Source: Stegostoma tigrinum (Eukaryota). From it: DNA of 64,000 nt. This document shows, in pieces, positions 3,945-61,793 of the stretch. Location of the stretch: assembly GCF_030684315.1 (NCBI RefSeq), contig NC_081361.1, positions 18,217,861 through 18,281,860 on the forward strand, written 5' to 3'. Position 1 is the stretch's first letter, and each line of letters starts with the position of its first letter. Below the pieces are notes generated by a model. The model was not told the origin of the DNA and ran no database searches. It saw nothing but the letters and a program-made list of their open reading frames with translations. Made by a program: the position numbers and the translations under genes.

Positions 3945-4140
3945 TAAGCATGACACTAAAATAGGTGGAAAGGCAGATTGTGAGATGGATACAAACAGTT
4001 TGCAGGGATTTTGATAAGCTGAGTAAGTGAGCAATAGATTGTCCAATGGGGTATAATGTGGGAAAATGTGAAGTCGCTCATTTTGGAAAAAAGAACAAAT
4101 GAACAGAATGTTATTTAACCGTAGAAAAATCACAGAAAGT
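3945..4140 (+). mobile_element. CR1-like LINE RT fragment
   Basis: gacactaaaataggtggaaaggc (DTKIGGKA) followed by decayed post-RT sequence. Confidence 0.55.
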
Positions 4141-29769: not shown

Positions 29770-29950
29770 AACTAAAACAAAAAATGGTGGATGGTGAAAA
29801 TCTTACACAAAAAAAACAGAAGTCACTGGTGAAACTCAGCTGGTCTGGTAGCATCAGTGGGGAGACTGGACTCAAAATGATAACTCTGCTTTCTTTCCAC
29901 TGATGCGAACAGACCTGCTGAATTTCTCCAGCAATTTCTGTTTTTGTTTC
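29770..29950. mobile_element. Fold-back PLE-tail insertion (older copy)
   Basis: aaacagaagtcactggtgaaactcagctggtctg is complementary to cagacctgctgaatttctccagcaatttctgttt; imperfect flanking repeats ctgattatttcct (29757) and ctaattatttctt (29950). Confidence 0.65.
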
Positions 29951-33338: not shown

Positions 33339-34006
33339 ATAATAAAATGTGAGGCTGGATGAACACAGCAGGCCAAGCGGCATCTCAGGAGCACAAAAGC
33401 TGACGTTTCGGGCCTAGACCCTTCATCAGAGAGGGGGATGGGGAGATGGAACTGGAATAAATAGGGAGAGAGGGGGAGGCGGACCGAAGATGGAGAGTAA
33501 AGAAGATAGGTGGAGAGAGTATAGGTGGGGAGGTAGGGAGGGGATAGGTCGGTCCAGGGAAGACGGACAGGTCAAGGAGGTGGGATGAGGTTAGTAGGTA
33601 GCTGGGGGTGCGGCTTGGGAGGAAGGGATGGGTGAGAGGAAGAACCGGTTAGGGAGGCAGAGACAGGTTGGACTGGTTTTGGGATGCAGTGGGTGGGGGG
33701 GAAGAGCTGGGCTGGTTGTGTGGTGCAGTGGGGGGAGGGGACGAACTAGGCTGGTTTAGGGATGCAGTAGGGGAAGGGGAGATTTTGAAACTGGTGAAGT
33801 CCACATTGATACCATATGGCTGCAGGGTTCCCAGGCGGAATATGAGTTGCTGTTCCTGCAACCTTCGGGTGGCATCATTGTGGCAGTGCAGGAGGCCCAT
33901 GATGGACATGTCATCTAGAGAATGGGAGGGGGAGTGGAAATGGTTTGCGACTGGGAGGTGCAGTTGTTTGTTGTGAACTGAGTGGAGGTGTTCTGCAAGT
34001 TCTGCA
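33339..34006 (-). mobile_element. Young 5'-truncated Penelope-like element with intact hammerhead core and 12-bp TSD
   Basis: ORF end PVANHFHSPSHSLDDMSIMGLLHCHNDATRRLQEQQLIFRLGTLQPYGINVDF; core at 33402-33429; TSD agtgaaggaaag at 33327-33338 and 34007-34018. Confidence 0.92.
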
Positions 34007-42191: not shown

Positions 42192-42268
42192 GATAATGAA
42201 GTGTGAGGCTGGATGAACACAGCAGGCCCAGCAGCATCTCAGGAGCACAAGAGCTGACGTTTCGGGCA
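42192..42268 (-). mobile_element. 77-bp PLE tail insertion with 13-bp TSD
   Basis: Same family as 33339-33430; TSD tatattggggcaa at 42179-42191 and 42269-42281. Confidence 0.92.
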
Positions 42269-43010
42269 TATATTGGGGCAACTCACCCATCTACAACTCA
42301 ATATCTGTTAAACCATAAGACACTCTTCTGCACCATCAGGGATAAAAACTAGCCTTATGGATGTGCCAGTCAATGTAATAGCAAGCCACTATCTGGTGGC
42401 ATCAGCACTATCAGGAAAGGTGGCCACTCCTGGCACCGTGGTCAATCCCGAAGAAGACATTCCATTATGGAGGTAGGACAGCTGCAGGTAAGTCCAAGGT
42501 CACCCTGGGGCCAGGTCCCAGCAATGCAAGAGTGAGGGGAGATGGGGATGGACAGAATCCAGAATGGATGGGGAAGTACAAAGATGGGGAGATGTTTTGC
42601 TGGGGGGAGGGCAGGGAAATGATGGCAGGGGTTGGAATGGACATAAGGGGTGATAGCTGACCAGCCTGTCCAACCACAAAACAAATTACATAAACAGGGA
42701 AGATCTTTGTTGAGTAGAGTATATTTTGAGTGACATGAAATATCTGATGGCTATAGTCCTGGGCTGCTCAATGGCATTTAAAGTTTTAAGTTTTCTAAGG
42801 AAGCCCAAGTAGATATTGAAGGGGCAAATGAATAATGGATGGATGTAATTACTCTGAAGCCTGCAATTGAATCAAATTGCAGCATTAAATTTGACAACAG
42901 TCTGTCACTTTTCAAGTTTAAGTTCGACACAAATTTTTTTTTATTTATTTTTTAGATTCTATGGGTATATCATCTTAGTCAACTTGAGGAAACAATTCAA
43001 TTTTCATAAT

Positions 43011-43236
43011 AACAAAATGTGAAGCTGGATGAACACAGCAGGCCGAGCAGCATCTCAGGAGCACAAAAGCTGACGTTTCGGGCCTAGACCCTTCATCAGA
43101 GCTGAATCCTCTGATGAAGGGTCTAGGCCCGAAACGTCAGCTTTTGTGCTCCTGAGATGCTGCTCGCCTGCTGTGTTCATCCAGCCTCACATTTTGTTGC
43201 CTTGGATTCTCCAGCATCTGCAGTTCCCATTATCTC
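43011..43236. mobile_element. Fold-back (palindromic) PLE-tail insertion with a hammerhead core on each strand and 13-bp TSD
   Basis: Arms 43011-43101 and 43109-43198 are near-perfect reverse complements; TSD caattttcataat at 42998-43010 and 43237-43249. Confidence 0.95.
43111..43138 (+). ncRNA. Minimal hammerhead ribozyme core (PLE type); identical cores on - at 43072-43099 and 33402-33429
   Basis: CUGAUGA-A-GGGU(CUAG)GCCC-GAAA-C-GUC: both catalytic boxes, stem II hairpin, palindromic ACGU in place of stem III, GUC cleavage triplet. Stem I is only about 2 bp. Confidence 0.7.
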
Positions 43237-46200
43237 CAATTTTCATAATGCTGTTTTGAAACAGAAAGGTATGAGGAAACCTAAACTACTGGATGATAGC
43301 AGCACTGTTGCATTACAGCAGTGAAAAGTAGTCATTGTTAGCTTTGCAACAGTGGCAGCAGTCTCACCCGAATGTAAGACATTGATCAATTGTAATACTT
43401 CTGAGCACAAAGTCATGTTTGGAAATTACTGTCTGGTTCTGAGTAAGTTTTGTAGTGTCAGAGTTGTCAGCTTTTGGAGAAGATGTTTAACTGAGCCACT
43501 GGTTGCTTACTGTGCTCAAATGTTGTGGCCTTGTGTAAACAGGGATGGTGGATTTCTGCCTGGTTTCTTGCTAAAACATACAAGTCCAAAAATATTCATA
43601 AAAACAGTGAACAGTATCTGGTCATTACCATTTGGCAGTTTGTTGGAGTTTGCTGTGTGCAAATGGTCAGCCGTGTTTCCCACAACACAGCAAATGAAGT
43701 TTGGAAAGTATGAAGTTTTTGAGCCTGCTTCAAAGTTGTCTAAAGGCGCAAGTTGAATCAAAGCTTCCCCATGTTCCATTTGTGTGGCCTACTGAGGTAT
43801 CTGAAAGATTAGAACCCTGGCATGGTACGAGGTGGCTTGTTTTCCTTACCTGTGATATTTTAATCATGAATTCAATCACAAAGAAATGGCACAAGGGTAG
43901 GATAATCACACAGTATGTACTAAATGGTATTGGTTCATTGAGAAACTGCAAGGAAAGAGAAAGACGTTGTCTTATCTTAACACCAATGAAAAGACATAAG
44001 TACCAGATCTCCTTTTCAGAATCAATTACATTTCACTTATATCCACAAAGACCAGACACTATAGGATGAATAACAAAATTTGTGACCAGCAGTACCAGAA
44101 CCAGTAGTCCACTTTTATTCTTGGCCTATAAACCAAATGGTGCTGGTGGAGTCTTTAGAGGATTCAAAGGTCAATGTAAAGGTTGAATTAACCTCAGGAA
44201 TGTTTTGAAGGGACTTTGAGGACTGATGTGACCACCTACCCTCTTGACAGCTGACCAGCCCTCCCAACCAGCAATCAAATTAATGGACGTATTGGTCGCA
44301 TGTGGGCCGGCCTCATGGTGCCTTCACCCCTATGGCCATGCTTCCAGGAAGGCTGTGAAGGGAACTCGGTGGAGATGGGGAAGTGTATCCATGACATGGT
44401 GCCCACCTTTACGAACAAACCCTCCTCACAAGACACCCATGCAAACAGAGATGAATTGGAAAACAGCAGTTAATTGCTCAAACAGGTTTTGTGTTCTTTC
44501 TCAGAAGGTTTTTTTTTAACAAAACAACGAGTCCAGTGAGTTCACAATGGTTTGACTGTGATGTCATAAACCAACAAACAAGGAAACTTGTGACAACACA
44601 AACAACAATCAACAATAGCTGCTGGGTCCTTTTCAGGCAATGAAAAACATTGATAATTTGTGCATTCAACTCAAATCAAATCAGGTTTTTTTACACTATC
44701 ATGAAGCTTTCTGATTTATCAAATTAGTGTCATTCGATTGTCTTTGTTGCTGCAATAAGAGACTTTTACTAAATTAATATGGTTAGCTGAACTGTTTAGT
44801 TGAGAAGACAACGGGAGCTTTTGTGATCTGAATTGTTCATGACAAGCCACCAAACTGTTAAGAAGTCCGACATATCAACTTTCAATCTAAATGCTTGTTT
44901 AGGGAGCAACTGCCACCGCTACTTTGATGTTCGATCCAACTCTGGAGAAATTGGTTGTTTTTGTTTCTGCATTTCAAAAGCGAGGCGTTGTATGTTTGCC
45001 TGCTCCTGTCTCCTCAATAATTGTCAATGGGCTTCACTCTCAATCATGCTGTGTAAATAGGTGGCATTCTCCCAGCCTTTTTGCACAAGGGTACAGACGT
45101 GTGCTAGTGTAACTAGATGAGTAATCCAGACATGTGAGCCTGTTGTTTGAGACATGCAAATTCAAATCCCAGTACAGCAGCGAGAGGTATTTATGTTCAA
45201 TTAATTCGGAATTCGGAATAAAAAGCCAATAATGGTGACTGCAAAGCTCCTCGATTGCTGTGAAAATCTAGCGGTTGCACAAATGTCTTTCAAAGTAAGA
45301 AATATGCTGTTGTCATCCGGTCTAACGCGTAGTTGTCCAGAATGGCTGCAAGGTGGTTAACTCTTAACTGCCCACTGAAATTACCACAAATGCAGCAGTG
45401 TGGAATCAGAACAACAAAGACATGGGGGATTTTGGTTTTGAGGCACCAGTAATTAGCAGTCTTCGTCCTGCAGGAAATTGAATAAAAGACTGTAGGACTA
45501 GGACTAGAAAAACTTTAAAGTACAGCATTTTTGCCATTCTGTAGACTGTAGATGAACTCCTTTGTTATTGCATTTTCCCGACAACTTCAGCTTCTTATTT
45601 TCTGACCTGAGCTTTTCTTATGAACTGTGTGTGATGAATAGAATACCTGAACGCTGTAGTGTCTTGAGAATACATGACTGTTTTCCACTTGATGCGCATG
45701 TAACCAAAATCAGGTCCTTCAGTTCACTTGTTGTGAAGCCCAAATCAATTGTTTGCAAGCTGGTTTTTGAAACCCTTTGTATAGCTGTAGAAATGAGCTT
45801 TCAAAAAAAAATGTACTCTTTATTTCTTGTCTGGTATCTCTGTTGCAGCCCAGCTTTTAGATCCTCGAATCAAGGACGCAATGTTGTTTTTTTAATTTAA
45901 GAAATAGTTTCTGTTGTTTATTTGCCAATTTCCTCTGCTATCCCGGAAAGTAGTGTAGTGTTGGCCATGGGCCAAGATAGAACTTTTAATCATTTCCTCA
46001 AATGCATTCAAATGGCGTTATTTATATGTAGCTAGAAGAAAGACTAGCCGGAGCTGGGTTCAGCATCAGGGCAATGGGACCTGTAGAGAGGTTTGACTTG
46101 GGTGAGGGGAAGACGCCGGAGTAGCTGGAAGGCTCTCAAACCTTGAGGACTGTTTTATGTCAGTAAAAGCACATTAATGTCAGTTTTGTTTGTTCAGTGC

Positions 46201-48606: not shown

Positions 48607-49719
48607 CTAATTCTTTCTTGTAGGTTTTTCTCTTTTTCCTGCCTTCCTCTGTTGCTTTGAATTGTTTGTTCTTTTCCTCATTGGAGATTCCAAAATTTCA
48701 ACTGTTTTAGTTACTTGAATGTTGCGTAGTGCTGAACTTGTTGGTATTTTCCATTTGGATATGTTTGGCATGTTGAGATGTCTCACAACATTCTTTGGTT
48801 TTGTGTTCTGTTGTTGAAGTGGCTGTACATAAAAAGGCAACGGTAGCTTGTTTGTAAGATTCATGCATGGTTGGAATAGTTGGTTTGGAGCTCTTAACAT
48901 CATTCGATTCATAACTGGAGGTGGTATTTGTGAAATAGGATTCGCAATCATCTCTGCTGGGTTAATATGTTGCATTCGATGTTGCTTTGCTTGGGGTACT
49001 ACATCTACGTAAAAAGGGTTAACGCCAGTAATGGCGGCTATCTGATGGGCATTGCTGAGGTCTGCAAAAGCTCTTTCAGGCAAAACTGAGTTGTAAAGAG
49101 TTAGCCGTGGCACACCATTCACAAACCTGTGAAGAATTGTCAGCCATATCCGACCGCTGATGGGATTGAGGGTCACTCTCGGCCAAAGTGAAGCCAAGTT
49201 ATGGAGAGCTTCTCTATTCCACCCAGATTCAGAAAAGTGATCATCCGTATGGTAGAGTGCAGAGAAATAAATGTCCAACCGTGTGCTGGGAAAACTTAAC
49301 AAGAAATCATATATTTTGGTTATACAGCAGTGGTTTTTTTCATTACATGGGGTGTAGTTGGAATAGATAGTGATGTAAGCAATATCTTCATAGTAGTACA
49401 AGAGTGCATCCAGATAGCCATCCATGTCAAAGAAGATAGATTCTGGATGCAGTTGATATAAAGTACAGTTGGTTACTTGTCCTTTCTGCACTAAAGTACC
49501 AGATGATAACTTCAGTTCATAAAAGACCAGATGCCTGTCAGATTGTGGTTGAGCGTAGGGAAATCCAAACGTTTCATAAAATTCAATGTAGGAAACTCGC
49601 GCCTCTTCCCCAGTTTTGATGTGATAGGGACAATGTGGACATCTTTCAGTGGAATACAGCCAGTAGTAAGGTTTCACTAGTGTCCCTTGAGGAGCAACAT
49701 ATTCTTCATAAGTCATCAT
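48607..49719 (-). CDS. APOBEC4: APOBEC4, putative zinc-dependent cytidine deaminase, 370 aa, single coding exon
   Basis: Intact ORF with GT.VKPYYW, CPHCPYHIKTGEEARV, HPE (49441-49449), PCNEKNHC (PCx6C to the second Cys of CC, 49324-49350), WNREAL..LASLWPRV, KPKNVVRHLNMP and a basic tail. Splice acceptor ccttctctttcag| opens the exon at 49781. Confidence 0.97.
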   Translation of the reverse strand: MMTYEEYVAPQGTLVKPYYWLYSTERCPHCPYHIKTGEEARVSYIEFYETFGFPYAQPQSDRHLVFYELKLSSGTLVQKGQVTNCTLYQLHPESIFFDMDGYLDALLYYYEDIAYITIYSNYTPCNEKNHCCITKIYDFLLSFPSTRLDIYFSALYHTDDHFSESGWNREALHNLASLWPRVTLNPISGRIWLTILHRFVNGVPRLTLYNSVLPERAFADLSNAHQIAAITGVNPFYVDVVPQAKQHRMQHINPAEMIANPISQIPPPVMNRMMLRAPNQLFQPCMNLTNKLPLPFYVQPLQQQNTKPKNVVRHLNMPNISKWKIPTSSALRNIQVTKTVEILESPMRKRTNNSKQQRKAGKREKPTRKN

Positions 49720-50693
49720 TATGATGGTTCCTTTACCTCAATTTTGTTGCAAACTCATATTCAATTAAGGATCATATATTCCTGAAAGAGAAGGTAAAAT
49801 GGGTGTTGACTATAAACAGAACAGAGAAGATCTGTAAGAGGCAAAACTATGAATTTTCCAGATTTGGGACATAAACAGACATAACAGATCAGATCTTCTG
49901 TCAGAATGTGTTTTTTCCATTTTCTCAGATGTAGTGGTTAGAATCTGGAATATATTTCCACAGGAAGTGAAAATGGCTTGAATGCTTTCAAAATGAAAGC
50001 AGCACATTGAAAAAGAATGCAAGGGCACACTGGTAGAAAGAGATGAGGGGATTGGAATTGGAGGGGGCACACCAGACAGAAATGGTACAACTGGCTGGGC
50101 TGACTGGCCCGCTTCAAAACTGTATCAGCGGACAAAGCAAAATTGCACCAGAAACGAACCTATAATTGCAGCAAATTTATGAGTAAAAGCAACACAAAAT
50201 GGCATGAGTATCCATTGTATCCTTTGCACTTTTTACATGATTAGATTGGGATGGTGGTGCTTGTGTCGTTCCTCAGTAATAACCTTTTCAGATATTTTCA
50301 GGGCGCTGAAGAGATTGAGAAGCTGTTTGAAAGTTAAAGTAGGCATTTCTGTGGTGAATTCTTCAGGAATTCATGCATACGGAGTTGGCAAACTTTTATG
50401 TTCATCACTATTGAGAAGAGAATTGAATGATCAGTGGCCATGCCATTTTTAAATGCAGACTTGAGCCCACAATTATGTGGATTCTGACATGCTGTCACAA
50501 AAGGAAATATTTAACTCAACTGGGATTTCTGATGCAAAGTTCCAACACTGAAATGCAAAATTCACTAAACAAACTATTGTAATTACCTACTACAATATTG
50601 CTAGAATTTGTAACAGTTGTGCTTGTCAAATATTGCTCAATGTGCTGAAATTCGTGCACTGTTATAAAGCATAGAGGCGTAAAAAGTACATAC

Positions 50694-55792: not shown

Positions 55793-55993
55793 GTTTTGAG
55801 AAGATTTGTAGCTCAGGTTGAGGCTCTGAATGTAAGTTTGCTCGCTGAGCTGGAAGGTTAGTTTTCAGACGTTTCATCACCATTCTAGGTAACATCATCA
55901 GTGAGCCTCCGACGATGGCTGATGGTGTTACCTAGAATGGTGATGAAACATCTGAAAACTAAACTTCCAGCTCAGCGAGCAAACTCACATCCA
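55793..55993. mobile_element. Fold-back element of a second PLE-like family with hammerhead core
   Basis: Arms about 55827-55901 and 55919-55993 are reverse complements. Minus strand reads ucaCUGAUGA-U-GUUACC(UAGAAU)GGUGAU-GAAAC-GUCuga. Confidence 0.85.
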
Positions 55994-57045
55994 TAGGATG
56001 CATTCTCAACATCTTGAGTGGAACACCCCGATTGCCAAACTGCTCCGCTGTCTGTGGTATATCTGGTGAATGTCAACTGTAACTACAGAATGTTTTGTAC
56101 AAACTCCATTGTATTTGCTTCTCACTATGGTTTGCTTTGAGTCAAGTGCGAAATATGGTCCGAAAGAATGGCTTATTTGCCTTTGATGGTGAATGTATTT
56201 TGGTTTAATTTGAGAGGAGTGTGCAAAATGGAAAAGTGTGCGGGGGGCAGGGTGAAGGAATATACATTTTCTAAAGCCCATGCAATATCTCACTTAAAAT
56301 GGACAATACATTTTAAAATGGAAAACATTTAATGAGACTTTGTGTTACCAGAATTACTGATTTTTGGCGATATTTGTACACATACACGTAAATGAAAATT
56401 CTATTATTTAAACCTGGGGTTGCTTGTATAATGCAAACGAATGCGCTTTGCATTACAGTTCGGGGCTCTGTTCACATGGAATATGAAGTGTTAGTAAGAA
56501 TTGGTGCATGTCTTGGAGCAGTCATTGGTTTGATTTGACGTCAAGACTCAGTGAAATTCCCTGGAGGATTACGTTTACTGCTGATTTTGTGCTGTAGCCA
56601 GGTCGTCTGACTTCGCTGCCAGACTCGCAGGGTCATTGTAAATACGCTTCCCGCTGCCCATATGTTACACCGTGTGTAAATCCTGAAGGTGTGGGTGATT
56701 AGGAAGGGGGCATGCTTTTCCTTCCCTCTGTGCAATATTCTGTGGCAAATGCTCAGCTTTCTGTTATCCTTCACGCCGAGGTGTACCGTGCCTCCTGAAG
56801 CCAGCTGGTAAGCTCGGTGTTTTCCAGGCTGGCGGGGGCATGGGATCAAACCCACGTGCAGTCTTTCACAGGCTTGGCTGCATCCCAGAATCTGCATTCT
56901 TGAACAAGTCAGCTTGACATTTTACGAAGTTTTCCATGTCAGCACCAGGCTTCTGCATTTGGGGAAGTCCTGTCGAATGGTGTTGAGGAGTCAGTCAATT
57001 GTTCTTGCTTTTCAGAGATACCAGGAACTGCACATACTGGAGAAT

Positions 57046-57100
57046 CTGAGATGCTGCTTGGCCTGCTGTGTTCATCGTGCTCTACACCTTGTTGTCTCAT
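57046..57100 (+). mobile_element. Short fragment of the young PLE tail
   Basis: ctgagatgctgcttggcctgctgtgttcatc, as in 43152-43182 and 61708-61738. Confidence 0.75.
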
Positions 57101-57950: not shown

Positions 57951-58777
57951 GTTTCTCAATCTTACCTCCTCATTTGAGAGTGCAAACCATCACAGCGAGT
58001 AGTTTGACTTCAAATCACGCATCCATACTTGGTAGCTAAAATAGCAGGAAACATTGCAACACATGGTCCTGTGTTCAGGCACTGGTCTGCTGGAATGGAC
58101 CGTTGTGTTGGTTGCAGTAATACGAATACAAGAAGTTTTGTAAAGAACTGGCTTTGTTTGAAACAAACCAGCATATTGTTTAAAAGAACAGTGAACAAGA
58201 AGTTAAGTAAAGGGCTGCCATTCTCGCATGAGTCCTGAAGGATGTACAGTTCATTCTGCAGGTATACTTAGAATGTTGCTGTAGTTCACTGTTTCTGTGA
58301 AGAAGAATGACAGCAATCGAAGGCTCGAAGAGATCTGTACATACTTTTGTCGTCAGTCACATTGGCCTTTTGAACATAATAGGCTCGATTTTATGGTCAG
58401 GGTAAACTAACCCTGTTGGCTGTGAATAAAGTCGTTCACACAGGTTGGGAAATTTTTTATGTTGTGACCCTCCCCTTTCCTGATGGCAGTTTAAATCTGG
58501 TACATAGTTGAGGGGATCTCCATGTCAGAAGGGCGATGCCAGCAAACAAGGCAAGCAACCAATCAGATTGAACTATTCTCAAAGAAAGCAAACCAGGAAG
58601 TTATAAATTCTGCAATTTGTTTTATTGAATTAAATTTTCAGAAAGCAATTAATGAAATTGATGAACTACAAAGTTAGCATAGACAGACTTGAAAAACATA
58701 CCTTATGTTTTTTAAAAAACAATTGAACTTTCCGAATGTAGAACTAACTTTTTCAGAGCCAGTAATAATTTAATATG

Positions 58778-58998
58778 GAACAAAAACAAAGTTGCTGGAA
58801 AAGCTCATCAGGTCTGGCAACATCTGTGAGGAAGAAAACAACGTTGATGTTTTGGGTCCAATTCTGATGAATGGTCACTGGACCCGAAACACTCACTCTG
58901 TTTTCTCCTTCACAGATGCTACCAGACCTGCTGAGCTTTTCCAGTAACTTTGTTTTCGTTCCTGATTCACGGCATCCACAGTTCTTTTGGTTTTTATT
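58778..58998. mobile_element. Fold-back PLE-tail insertion with 15-bp TSD and hammerhead-like core
   Basis: aacaaagttgctggaaaagctcatcaggtctgg is complementary to ccagacctgctgagcttttccagtaactttgtt; core CTGATGAATGGTCACTGGACCCGAAAC at 58864-58890; TSD taataatttaa(t/c)atg at 58763-58777 and 58999-59013. Confidence 0.88.
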
Positions 58999-61662: not shown

Positions 61663-61793
61663 CTCTCTGATGAAGAGTCTTGGCCCGAAACATCAGCTTT
61701 TGTGTTCCTGAGATGCTGCTTGGCCTGCTGTGTTCATCCAGCTTCACACTTTGTTACCTTGGATTCTCCAGCATCTGCAGTTCCCATTATCAT
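61663..61793 (+). mobile_element. PLE tail-only insertion starting at the hammerhead core
   Basis: ctctCTGATGAAGAGTCTTGGCCCGAAACATCagc...cagttcccattatc; possible 8-bp TSD caaaataa at 61655-61662 and 61794-61801. Confidence 0.85.

Follow-up and report, generated by a model that had tools for sequence, protein, structure and literature searches.

RESULTS

Anatomy of the insert

We analyzed a 64,000-nucleotide stretch of the Stegostoma tigrinum genome (the window), which contains a 226-bp insert at positions 43011-43236. All of this insert except 7 nt is Penelope sequence. Its features are given below. In the element numbering used throughout, the C of CUGAUGA is +1, and the predicted cut lies after +28. 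Papers are cited for the parts of their text that were available.

42998..43010, no strand: target-site duplication, left copy, 13 bp
43011..43101, minus strand: inverted, tail-less copy of the Penelope terminal repeat (-2 to +89)
43072..43099, minus strand: left-arm minimal hammerhead core; helix I is 4 bp, 2 of these from spacer letters
43102..43108, no strand: locus-specific 7-nt junction insert (spacer)
43109..43198, plus strand: terminal-repeat copy in direct orientation (-2 to +88)
43111..43138, plus strand: right-arm minimal hammerhead core, with the cut predicted after 43138
43199..43236, plus strand: 38-nt one-sided tail (assigned in part from PMC8557442 and PMC11167929)
43237..43249, no strand: target-site duplication, right copy, 13 bp

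The original prediction, made from the sequence alone, placed the insert between perfect 13-bp direct repeats, and the two copies (42998-43010 and 43237-43249) are indeed identical at 13 of 13 positions. Its division of the insert into two arms and a 7-nt spacer also stands, but it omitted the 38-nt extension (43199-43236), which is found on the right-arm side only and has no left counterpart. The left arm is 91 nt and the right arm is 90 nt. They are nested and differ by 1 substitution and one 1-nt indel. Both carry a C that is absent from all other loci among 439 motif matches; the 4 matches with this C are the window locus, fetched twice. An intact hammerhead core lies at the inner end of each arm, as had been claimed, and the two cores are on opposite strands, 11 nt apart. 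The spacer seems to resemble short scraps of the adjoining core and upstream sequence. The insert has a predicted folding energy of -185.1 kcal/mol (z -25), and none of 200 shuffles was equally stable.

High-depth contigs cover the flanks (window 42717-42896 and 43280-43400), so the insert seems to lie inside an older repeat, other copies of which are without it. Among the contigs of the DNA runs, none had the clean single-duplication join of an empty site. In each of two DNA runs, one high-depth contig has 20 other letters in place of the insert and is probably a paralogue of the flanking repeat.

The window holds more copies of the same Penelope family (33341-33431, 42199-42270, 57015-57097, and 61665-61791). 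In the copy at 57015-57097, a tail piece is joined in inverted orientation to part of an arm. Three further mirror-image inserts belong to other sequence families (55824-55996, 58777-58962, and 29809-29948) and have weak microRNA matches in Rfam. The first of them contains a hammerhead core whose stem II is longer, and the right arm of the second begins at CUGAUGA. About 5 kb from the insert, a 376-aa open frame on the minus strand (48607-49737) encodes an AID/APOBEC deaminase domain (Pfam NAD1, E 5e-23; APOBEC4, E 2e-20).

The arms are terminal repeats of a Penelope-like element

The arm is the terminal repeat of a Penelope-like element of about 3.5 kb, whose ORF contains reverse transcriptase (RT) and GIY-YIG domains. 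The family is abundant, with 138,814 exact genomic matches to its 15-nt core. We searched with the arm plus tail; 40 of 498 candidates were scored, and 30 loci were returned. Seventeen of the 29 non-window loci extend at least 260 nt upstream into one common sequence, and the others are 5 short head-to-head stubs, 4 single arms, and 3 intermediate forms. This common sequence closes an ORF in which RT motifs precede a GIY-YIG motif. In Pfam, the parent ORF matched RVT_1 (E 2.4e-6) and GIY-YIG (E 5e-4 and 1.2e-3), all under the curated cut-offs. Locus L032 has a 729-aa open frame with RVT_1 (E 2.4e-6) and then GIY-YIG (E 1.2e-3), both again under the Pfam cut-offs. A PDB sequence search with the parent ORF gave no match. 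A C-x4-C-x2-C stretch precedes the GIY-YIG motif; the Neptune clade is defined by a Zn-finger-like motif between RT and endonuclease (PMC8557442).

On the tail side, there are 1,737 tail-to-body junctions at which the tail runs on into a second common sequence that holds the ORF start, and 10 of 30 fetched copies reach at least 1.4 kb into the ORF. The terminal repeat is a partial tandem, running through the tail into the ORF start. Long versions of the mirror layout also occur, at L032 (arms of 2.4 and 2.7 kb) and L033. The Penelope origin proposed in the original prediction is supported. Three head-to-tail arrays of 166-329-bp units (G000:C1:165409215-165411429, C1:140329154-140330179, and C1:104860942-104862287) contain the tail-to-body junction and are retrozyme-like derivatives of the parent.

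Arm ends fall into two classes

The same layout, with 0 to 20 nt between the cores, is found at 4,114 genomic loci. We read 51 of these loci: the window locus plus the top 50 of the list, which all lie on contig C1. There are 28 different junctions in these 51 loci, the commonest of which (12 of 51) is a blunt perfect palindrome. The tail is one-sided in 50 of 51 sister loci. The tail-less arm ends between +81 and +102 in 49 of 51 loci, and the tailed arm ends between +123 and +146 in 50 of 51, giving two classes of 3' end at about +89 and +127. These match the two reverse-transcription start sites that bound the tail in a lizard Penelope element; the protein of that element both cuts and extends each of the two target strands (PMC11167929). 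Single copies without a tail also occur, and they abut their duplication (for example, L134, L224, and L236).

The insert consists of two head-to-head copies of the terminal repeat, only one of which has the 38-nt tail, and we consider it probable that they were generated in one insertion event via two primed cDNAs. In this scenario, the parent enzyme would cut both DNA strands about 13 bp apart, and each cut would prime one cDNA, at two nearby start points. Both cDNAs would run off the likely 5' end of the RNA, a few bases ahead of the ribozyme, and the two cDNA ends left would then be joined head to head. For the window locus, we infer two separate primings and end joining by host repair.

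The arms turn a few bases ahead of the ribozyme core

The arms turn 2 to 6 nt ahead of the ribozyme core, not at the cut. There were 4,114 junctions with 0-20 nt between the cores versus 197 with 21-41 nt, and just 226 around the cut, so a turn at the ribozyme cut was rejected for the palindromes. The asymmetric junctions had no pile-up at the cut among 100 listed (by eye). Six of 342 copies start at +29, and these include two self-complementary joins and one mismatch artefact. Copy starts numbered 1,983 at -4 versus 34 at a control site near -35. We also sampled 132 copies near 86 core matches, taken from the first 100 in the list (first 2.6 Mb of C1). Of these copies, 34 start between -6 and -1 and 4 between -50 and -13; starts inside the core are undercounted, since the copies were selected with a word that covers -2 to +13.

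We lean slightly toward the RNA 5' end as the cause of the pile-up at -6 to -1. When one arm ended at -7 to -1, its partner was also short in 13 of 15 pairs, as if both arms had run off one RNA end. The internal promoter in the terminal repeat of Drosophila virilis Penelope makes an RNA start here plausible (PMC2377424). The same two-primer route could also produce the pile-up if the enzyme paused or dropped off at the C-rich tract or at the ribozyme structure. The stop does border a C run. Of 10 long copies reaching back to an upstream terminal repeat, not one begins at -6 to -1, although a single fixed RNA start should place some there. In the other 2 of the 15 pairs, the partner of the arm at the pile-up is 395 or 1,224 nt longer. 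However, a pause should act at each pass, and none of about 12 independent upstream repeats crossed in tandem copies stops there (by eye). Together with the short partner arms and an excess of G before -4, this makes a pause the less likely cause, albeit one that deserves serious weight.

Of the first 100 copies in the list, 69 have a G just before -4 (by eye), against 37% expected; a copied RNA cap, as in LINE-1, would leave such an excess. However, the control site also favors G over A (12 G, 4 A, and 18 T of 34; G versus A, p 0.21; G versus the rest, p 0.001), and at 30 loci read, many of the Gs end short templated inserts or overlap the target. A literature search on cap copying found no matches. 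Our literature coverage, which left out most subscription papers, Repbase, and supplements, turned up no description of the -4 pile-up or of a genomic footprint of the cut.

Other candidates were set aside. A splice acceptor near -23 had no ends there. A TCT-type initiator at -4 matches the consensus at 7 of 8 letters, which is weak in a pyrimidine tract (PMC4102762). A link to ancient human hairpin repeats yielded nothing useful in the available text of PMC5753468.

Non-nested arms favor two separately primed cDNAs

The original prediction had offered a fold-back product of Penelope reverse transcription that turns around at the ribozyme. The reverse-transcription product and a turn adjoining the ribozyme both stand, but the non-nested arms of sister loci argue against a simple fold-back for the class. 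In such a mechanism, a tail-primed cDNA would stop, snap back, and copy itself to about +89; a variant, put forward for rotifer elements, invokes self-priming on an antisense template. Among 30 asymmetric short loci, drawn from 5,305 matches, each arm had sequence missing from the other in 18. Arms were also non-nested in 10 of 36 sampled pairs. In these 18 loci and 10 pairs alike, the tail-less arm runs further 5' than the tailed arm. The tail-less arm was longer by more than 600 nt in four pairs, and some arm differences exceeded 1 kb. These non-nested arms favor two separately primed cDNAs, since a fold-back copy could hold nothing extra. A junction deletion during or after fold-back could mimic non-nesting in the short loci, but hardly in the long ones.

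The junctions point the same way. Junction inserts reach 20 nt or more and look like scraps of nearby sequence. Two of them, in L019 (about 1480-1500, element orientation) and G000:C2:86955126-86955177, contain telomere-type repeats, which in both cases follow the same three letters on the strand with the free 3' end. Such scrap-like and telomere-type inserts would fit end joining, and they count against fold-back, as do the tail-less single copies. Three things speak for fold-back: the arms of the window locus are nested and have their private variant in common, the commonest junction is a perfect palindrome, and self-priming is the published reading of such junctions (PMC3846280). On balance, simple fold-back is disfavored for the class, and we regard it as improbable. 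Taken alone, the window locus, with its nested arms, would also be compatible with fold-back, and the case for two cDNAs there is carried over from the class.

The mirror image is probably made anew at each locus

The original prediction also considered a protein-free unit that spreads by itself, and it proposed checking whether the spacer CTGAATC recurs at many loci. The exact spacer junction of the window locus is present once in the genome, an outcome that the prediction itself had named as counting against independent propagation. Because this junction is single-copy and 28 junctions occur in 51 loci, the insert is not a self-spreading unit. All 42 duplication-bounded units (duplication of at least 9 bp) were unique in left length, junction, and right length combined, although the boundary calls add some noise to this comparison. 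Sister-locus duplications are 9-17 bp, with a median of 13.5 (42 loci). In 67 nt, the arms differ at 2.0 positions within a locus versus 3.4 between loci (50 loci, one short-armed locus having been dropped).

If whole retrozyme-, SINE-, or MITE-like non-autonomous units were transcribed and reinserted, this would account for the thousands of similarly sized loci (171-244 bp in the 42 measured units), and a small subfamily of this kind may have been missed, as 51 of 4,114 loci were read. One 13-nt junction is common to exactly two loci genome-wide, L214 (G000:C1:5341065) and L215 (C1:6846766), which lie 1.5 Mb apart with different flanks and outer ends; this is possibly one case of unit copying or conversion. 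Against such a unit are the unique spacer and the 42 distinct units. The insert is also without many copies that have common ends and a common internal junction, as a SINE- or MITE-like element would have. Furthermore, the arms track several parent subfamilies in matched pairs, the two arms of one locus usually being of the same subfamily type. Right ends often extend 1-6 nt into the ORF-side sequence of the parent, which indicates a parent-type template, and the ribozyme is predicted to be locked (see below). This reading is therefore very unlikely, and for the window locus it is already largely refuted.

Two independent insertions back to back, or an assembly artefact, can be dismissed almost entirely even in so dense a family, because a single duplication brackets both arms, the arms differ at two places, unlike an artefactual mirror, they have a private variant in common, and the same layout has duplications of at least 8 bp in 43 of 51 loci.

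The ribozymes of the insert are predicted to be locked

No Rfam hammerhead model matched the window at E of at most 1; the scan yielded only 5 unrelated weak hits, none of them over the insert. We recognized the hammerhead core by its conserved letters and stem II. The minimal hammerhead that had been claimed is supported by the core letters, the extra base after position 9, the G10.1-C11.1 pair, and the palindromic 15.2-16.2. Helix II is 4 bp, helix I is 2 bp (plus strand) or 4 bp (minus strand), and there is no helix III loop. The combination of a 4-5-bp helix I with a long helix II, which characterizes the Schistosoma type, is not found in the cores of the insert. A 2-bp helix I has been described for a D. 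virilis variant (PMC4209133). In that report, minimal hammerheads are weak in vitro and need a same-strand dimer, and pairs on opposite strands lie 100-700 bp apart in Schistosoma.

With the arms arranged head to head, a read-through transcript of either strand would contain the antisense arm before the ribozyme, which is predicted to be locked. Freeing the core in the hairpin would cost 52-55 kcal/mol, versus 3-6 kcal/mol for the arm alone. This agrees with the earlier proposal that the full hairpin sequesters the ribozyme. However, the escape by co-transcriptional folding suggested with it is unlikely, as the core was predicted to be paired, with a probability above 0.999, at each of five transcript prefixes. 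The folding model therefore predicts that the window ribozymes are inactive. The stub is likewise predicted to be a dead end, because it is without sequence downstream of the tail and its ribozymes are predicted to be locked. Each arm retains the cut site together with about 30 nt of upstream sequence, which indicates that both derive from uncut RNA.

The parent family presents a different picture. Head-to-tail junctions that run from the ORF start back into the arm gave 40 matches, 28 of which restart exactly at +29 (by eye). By script, 21 of 30 fetched tandem junctions restart at the predicted cut, and no other position has more than 1; four pairs of these 30 loci are neighbors in one array, some may descend from one source, and the search pattern is blind to most restarts near -4. 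There are at least eight tandem junction types. In loci L246-L275, the junctions that resume at the predicted cut leave the ORF start at one preferred place and often have 1-4 additional A residues, as would be expected had the cut end been joined to an oligo-adenylated RNA end. The restarts at +29 suggest, from genomic sequence, that the ribozyme of the parent cuts in vivo; this concerns the family and not the window locus. For the lizard element Poseidon, the available text of PMC11167929 reports no RNA reads ending at the ribozyme cut.

DISCUSSION

The window insert is an ordinary dead stub of an already described layout, one of thousands. It is the class that matters, for how inverted ends form and for whether minimal ribozymes cut in cells. 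The replication cycle of Penelope elements has been called undefined (PMC8557442). We tentatively suggest, at somewhat less than even confidence, that the stubs are a genomic record of this cycle, in which two-end priming at the tail-bounding sites would be combined with an RNA cap about 4 nt before the core and with germ-line cutting of a share of the RNA by the ribozyme, the cut RNA being rejoined to its own 3' end and seeding tandem retrozyme-like arrays. The thousands of junctions lead to base-level predictions: two primers, RNA initiation near -4, and cleavage after +28. As a record of mechanism, the stub class is moderately useful, at the level of the class. The stubs may also be a ready source of false microRNA or MITE calls, and in read-through transcripts they may give long double-stranded RNA.

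Both the layout and opposite-strand hammerhead pairs are already in print. An insert with an inverted truncated copy, a one-sided tail, and a duplication is the published layout of endonuclease-bearing Penelope-like insertions. Adineta Pen2a/Pen2 (PMC3846280), the elements in the overview of PMC8557442, and D. virilis Penelope (PMC2377424) have the head-to-head inverted repeat in common with the insert. Also alike are the 30-40-bp tail on one side only, the short duplication, and the palindromic junction (PMC3846280, PMC8557442). Unlike the published insertions, the insert here consists entirely of two repeat ends with no ORF; in addition, thousands of loci have their inner ends clustered within 6 nt.

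The hammerheads of metazoan Penelope elements (PMC4209133) have the same core, with the extra base after position 9, G10.1-C11.1, a self-complementary 15.2-16.2, and no helix III. However, the insert departs from that type in its helix II of only 4 bp, its helix I of 2 bp, and its cores only 11 nt apart. Anolis Poseidon, which belongs to a different clade as far as motifs show, resembles our scenario in vitro: both strands are cut and extended, two internal start sites bound the tail, and uncut RNA is the main template, as it would be here (PMC11167929). Its inverted products are left unexplained in the available text of that paper.

Non-LTR retrozymes also derive from Penelope terminal repeats and carry type I hammerheads, as far as the available text goes (bioRxiv 10.64898/2026.07.22.740005). 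They are arranged head to tail with ribozymes on one strand, whereas the arms of the window locus are head to head with ribozymes on opposite strands. The parent family described here also forms retrozyme-like tandem arrays. In LINE-1 twin priming, cDNA synthesis likewise starts from both target ends, and joining of the products creates an inversion. However, the second LINE-1 primer anneals far inside the RNA, so that the two parts barely overlap, whereas the two starts here are about 38 nt apart and the product is a mirror image.
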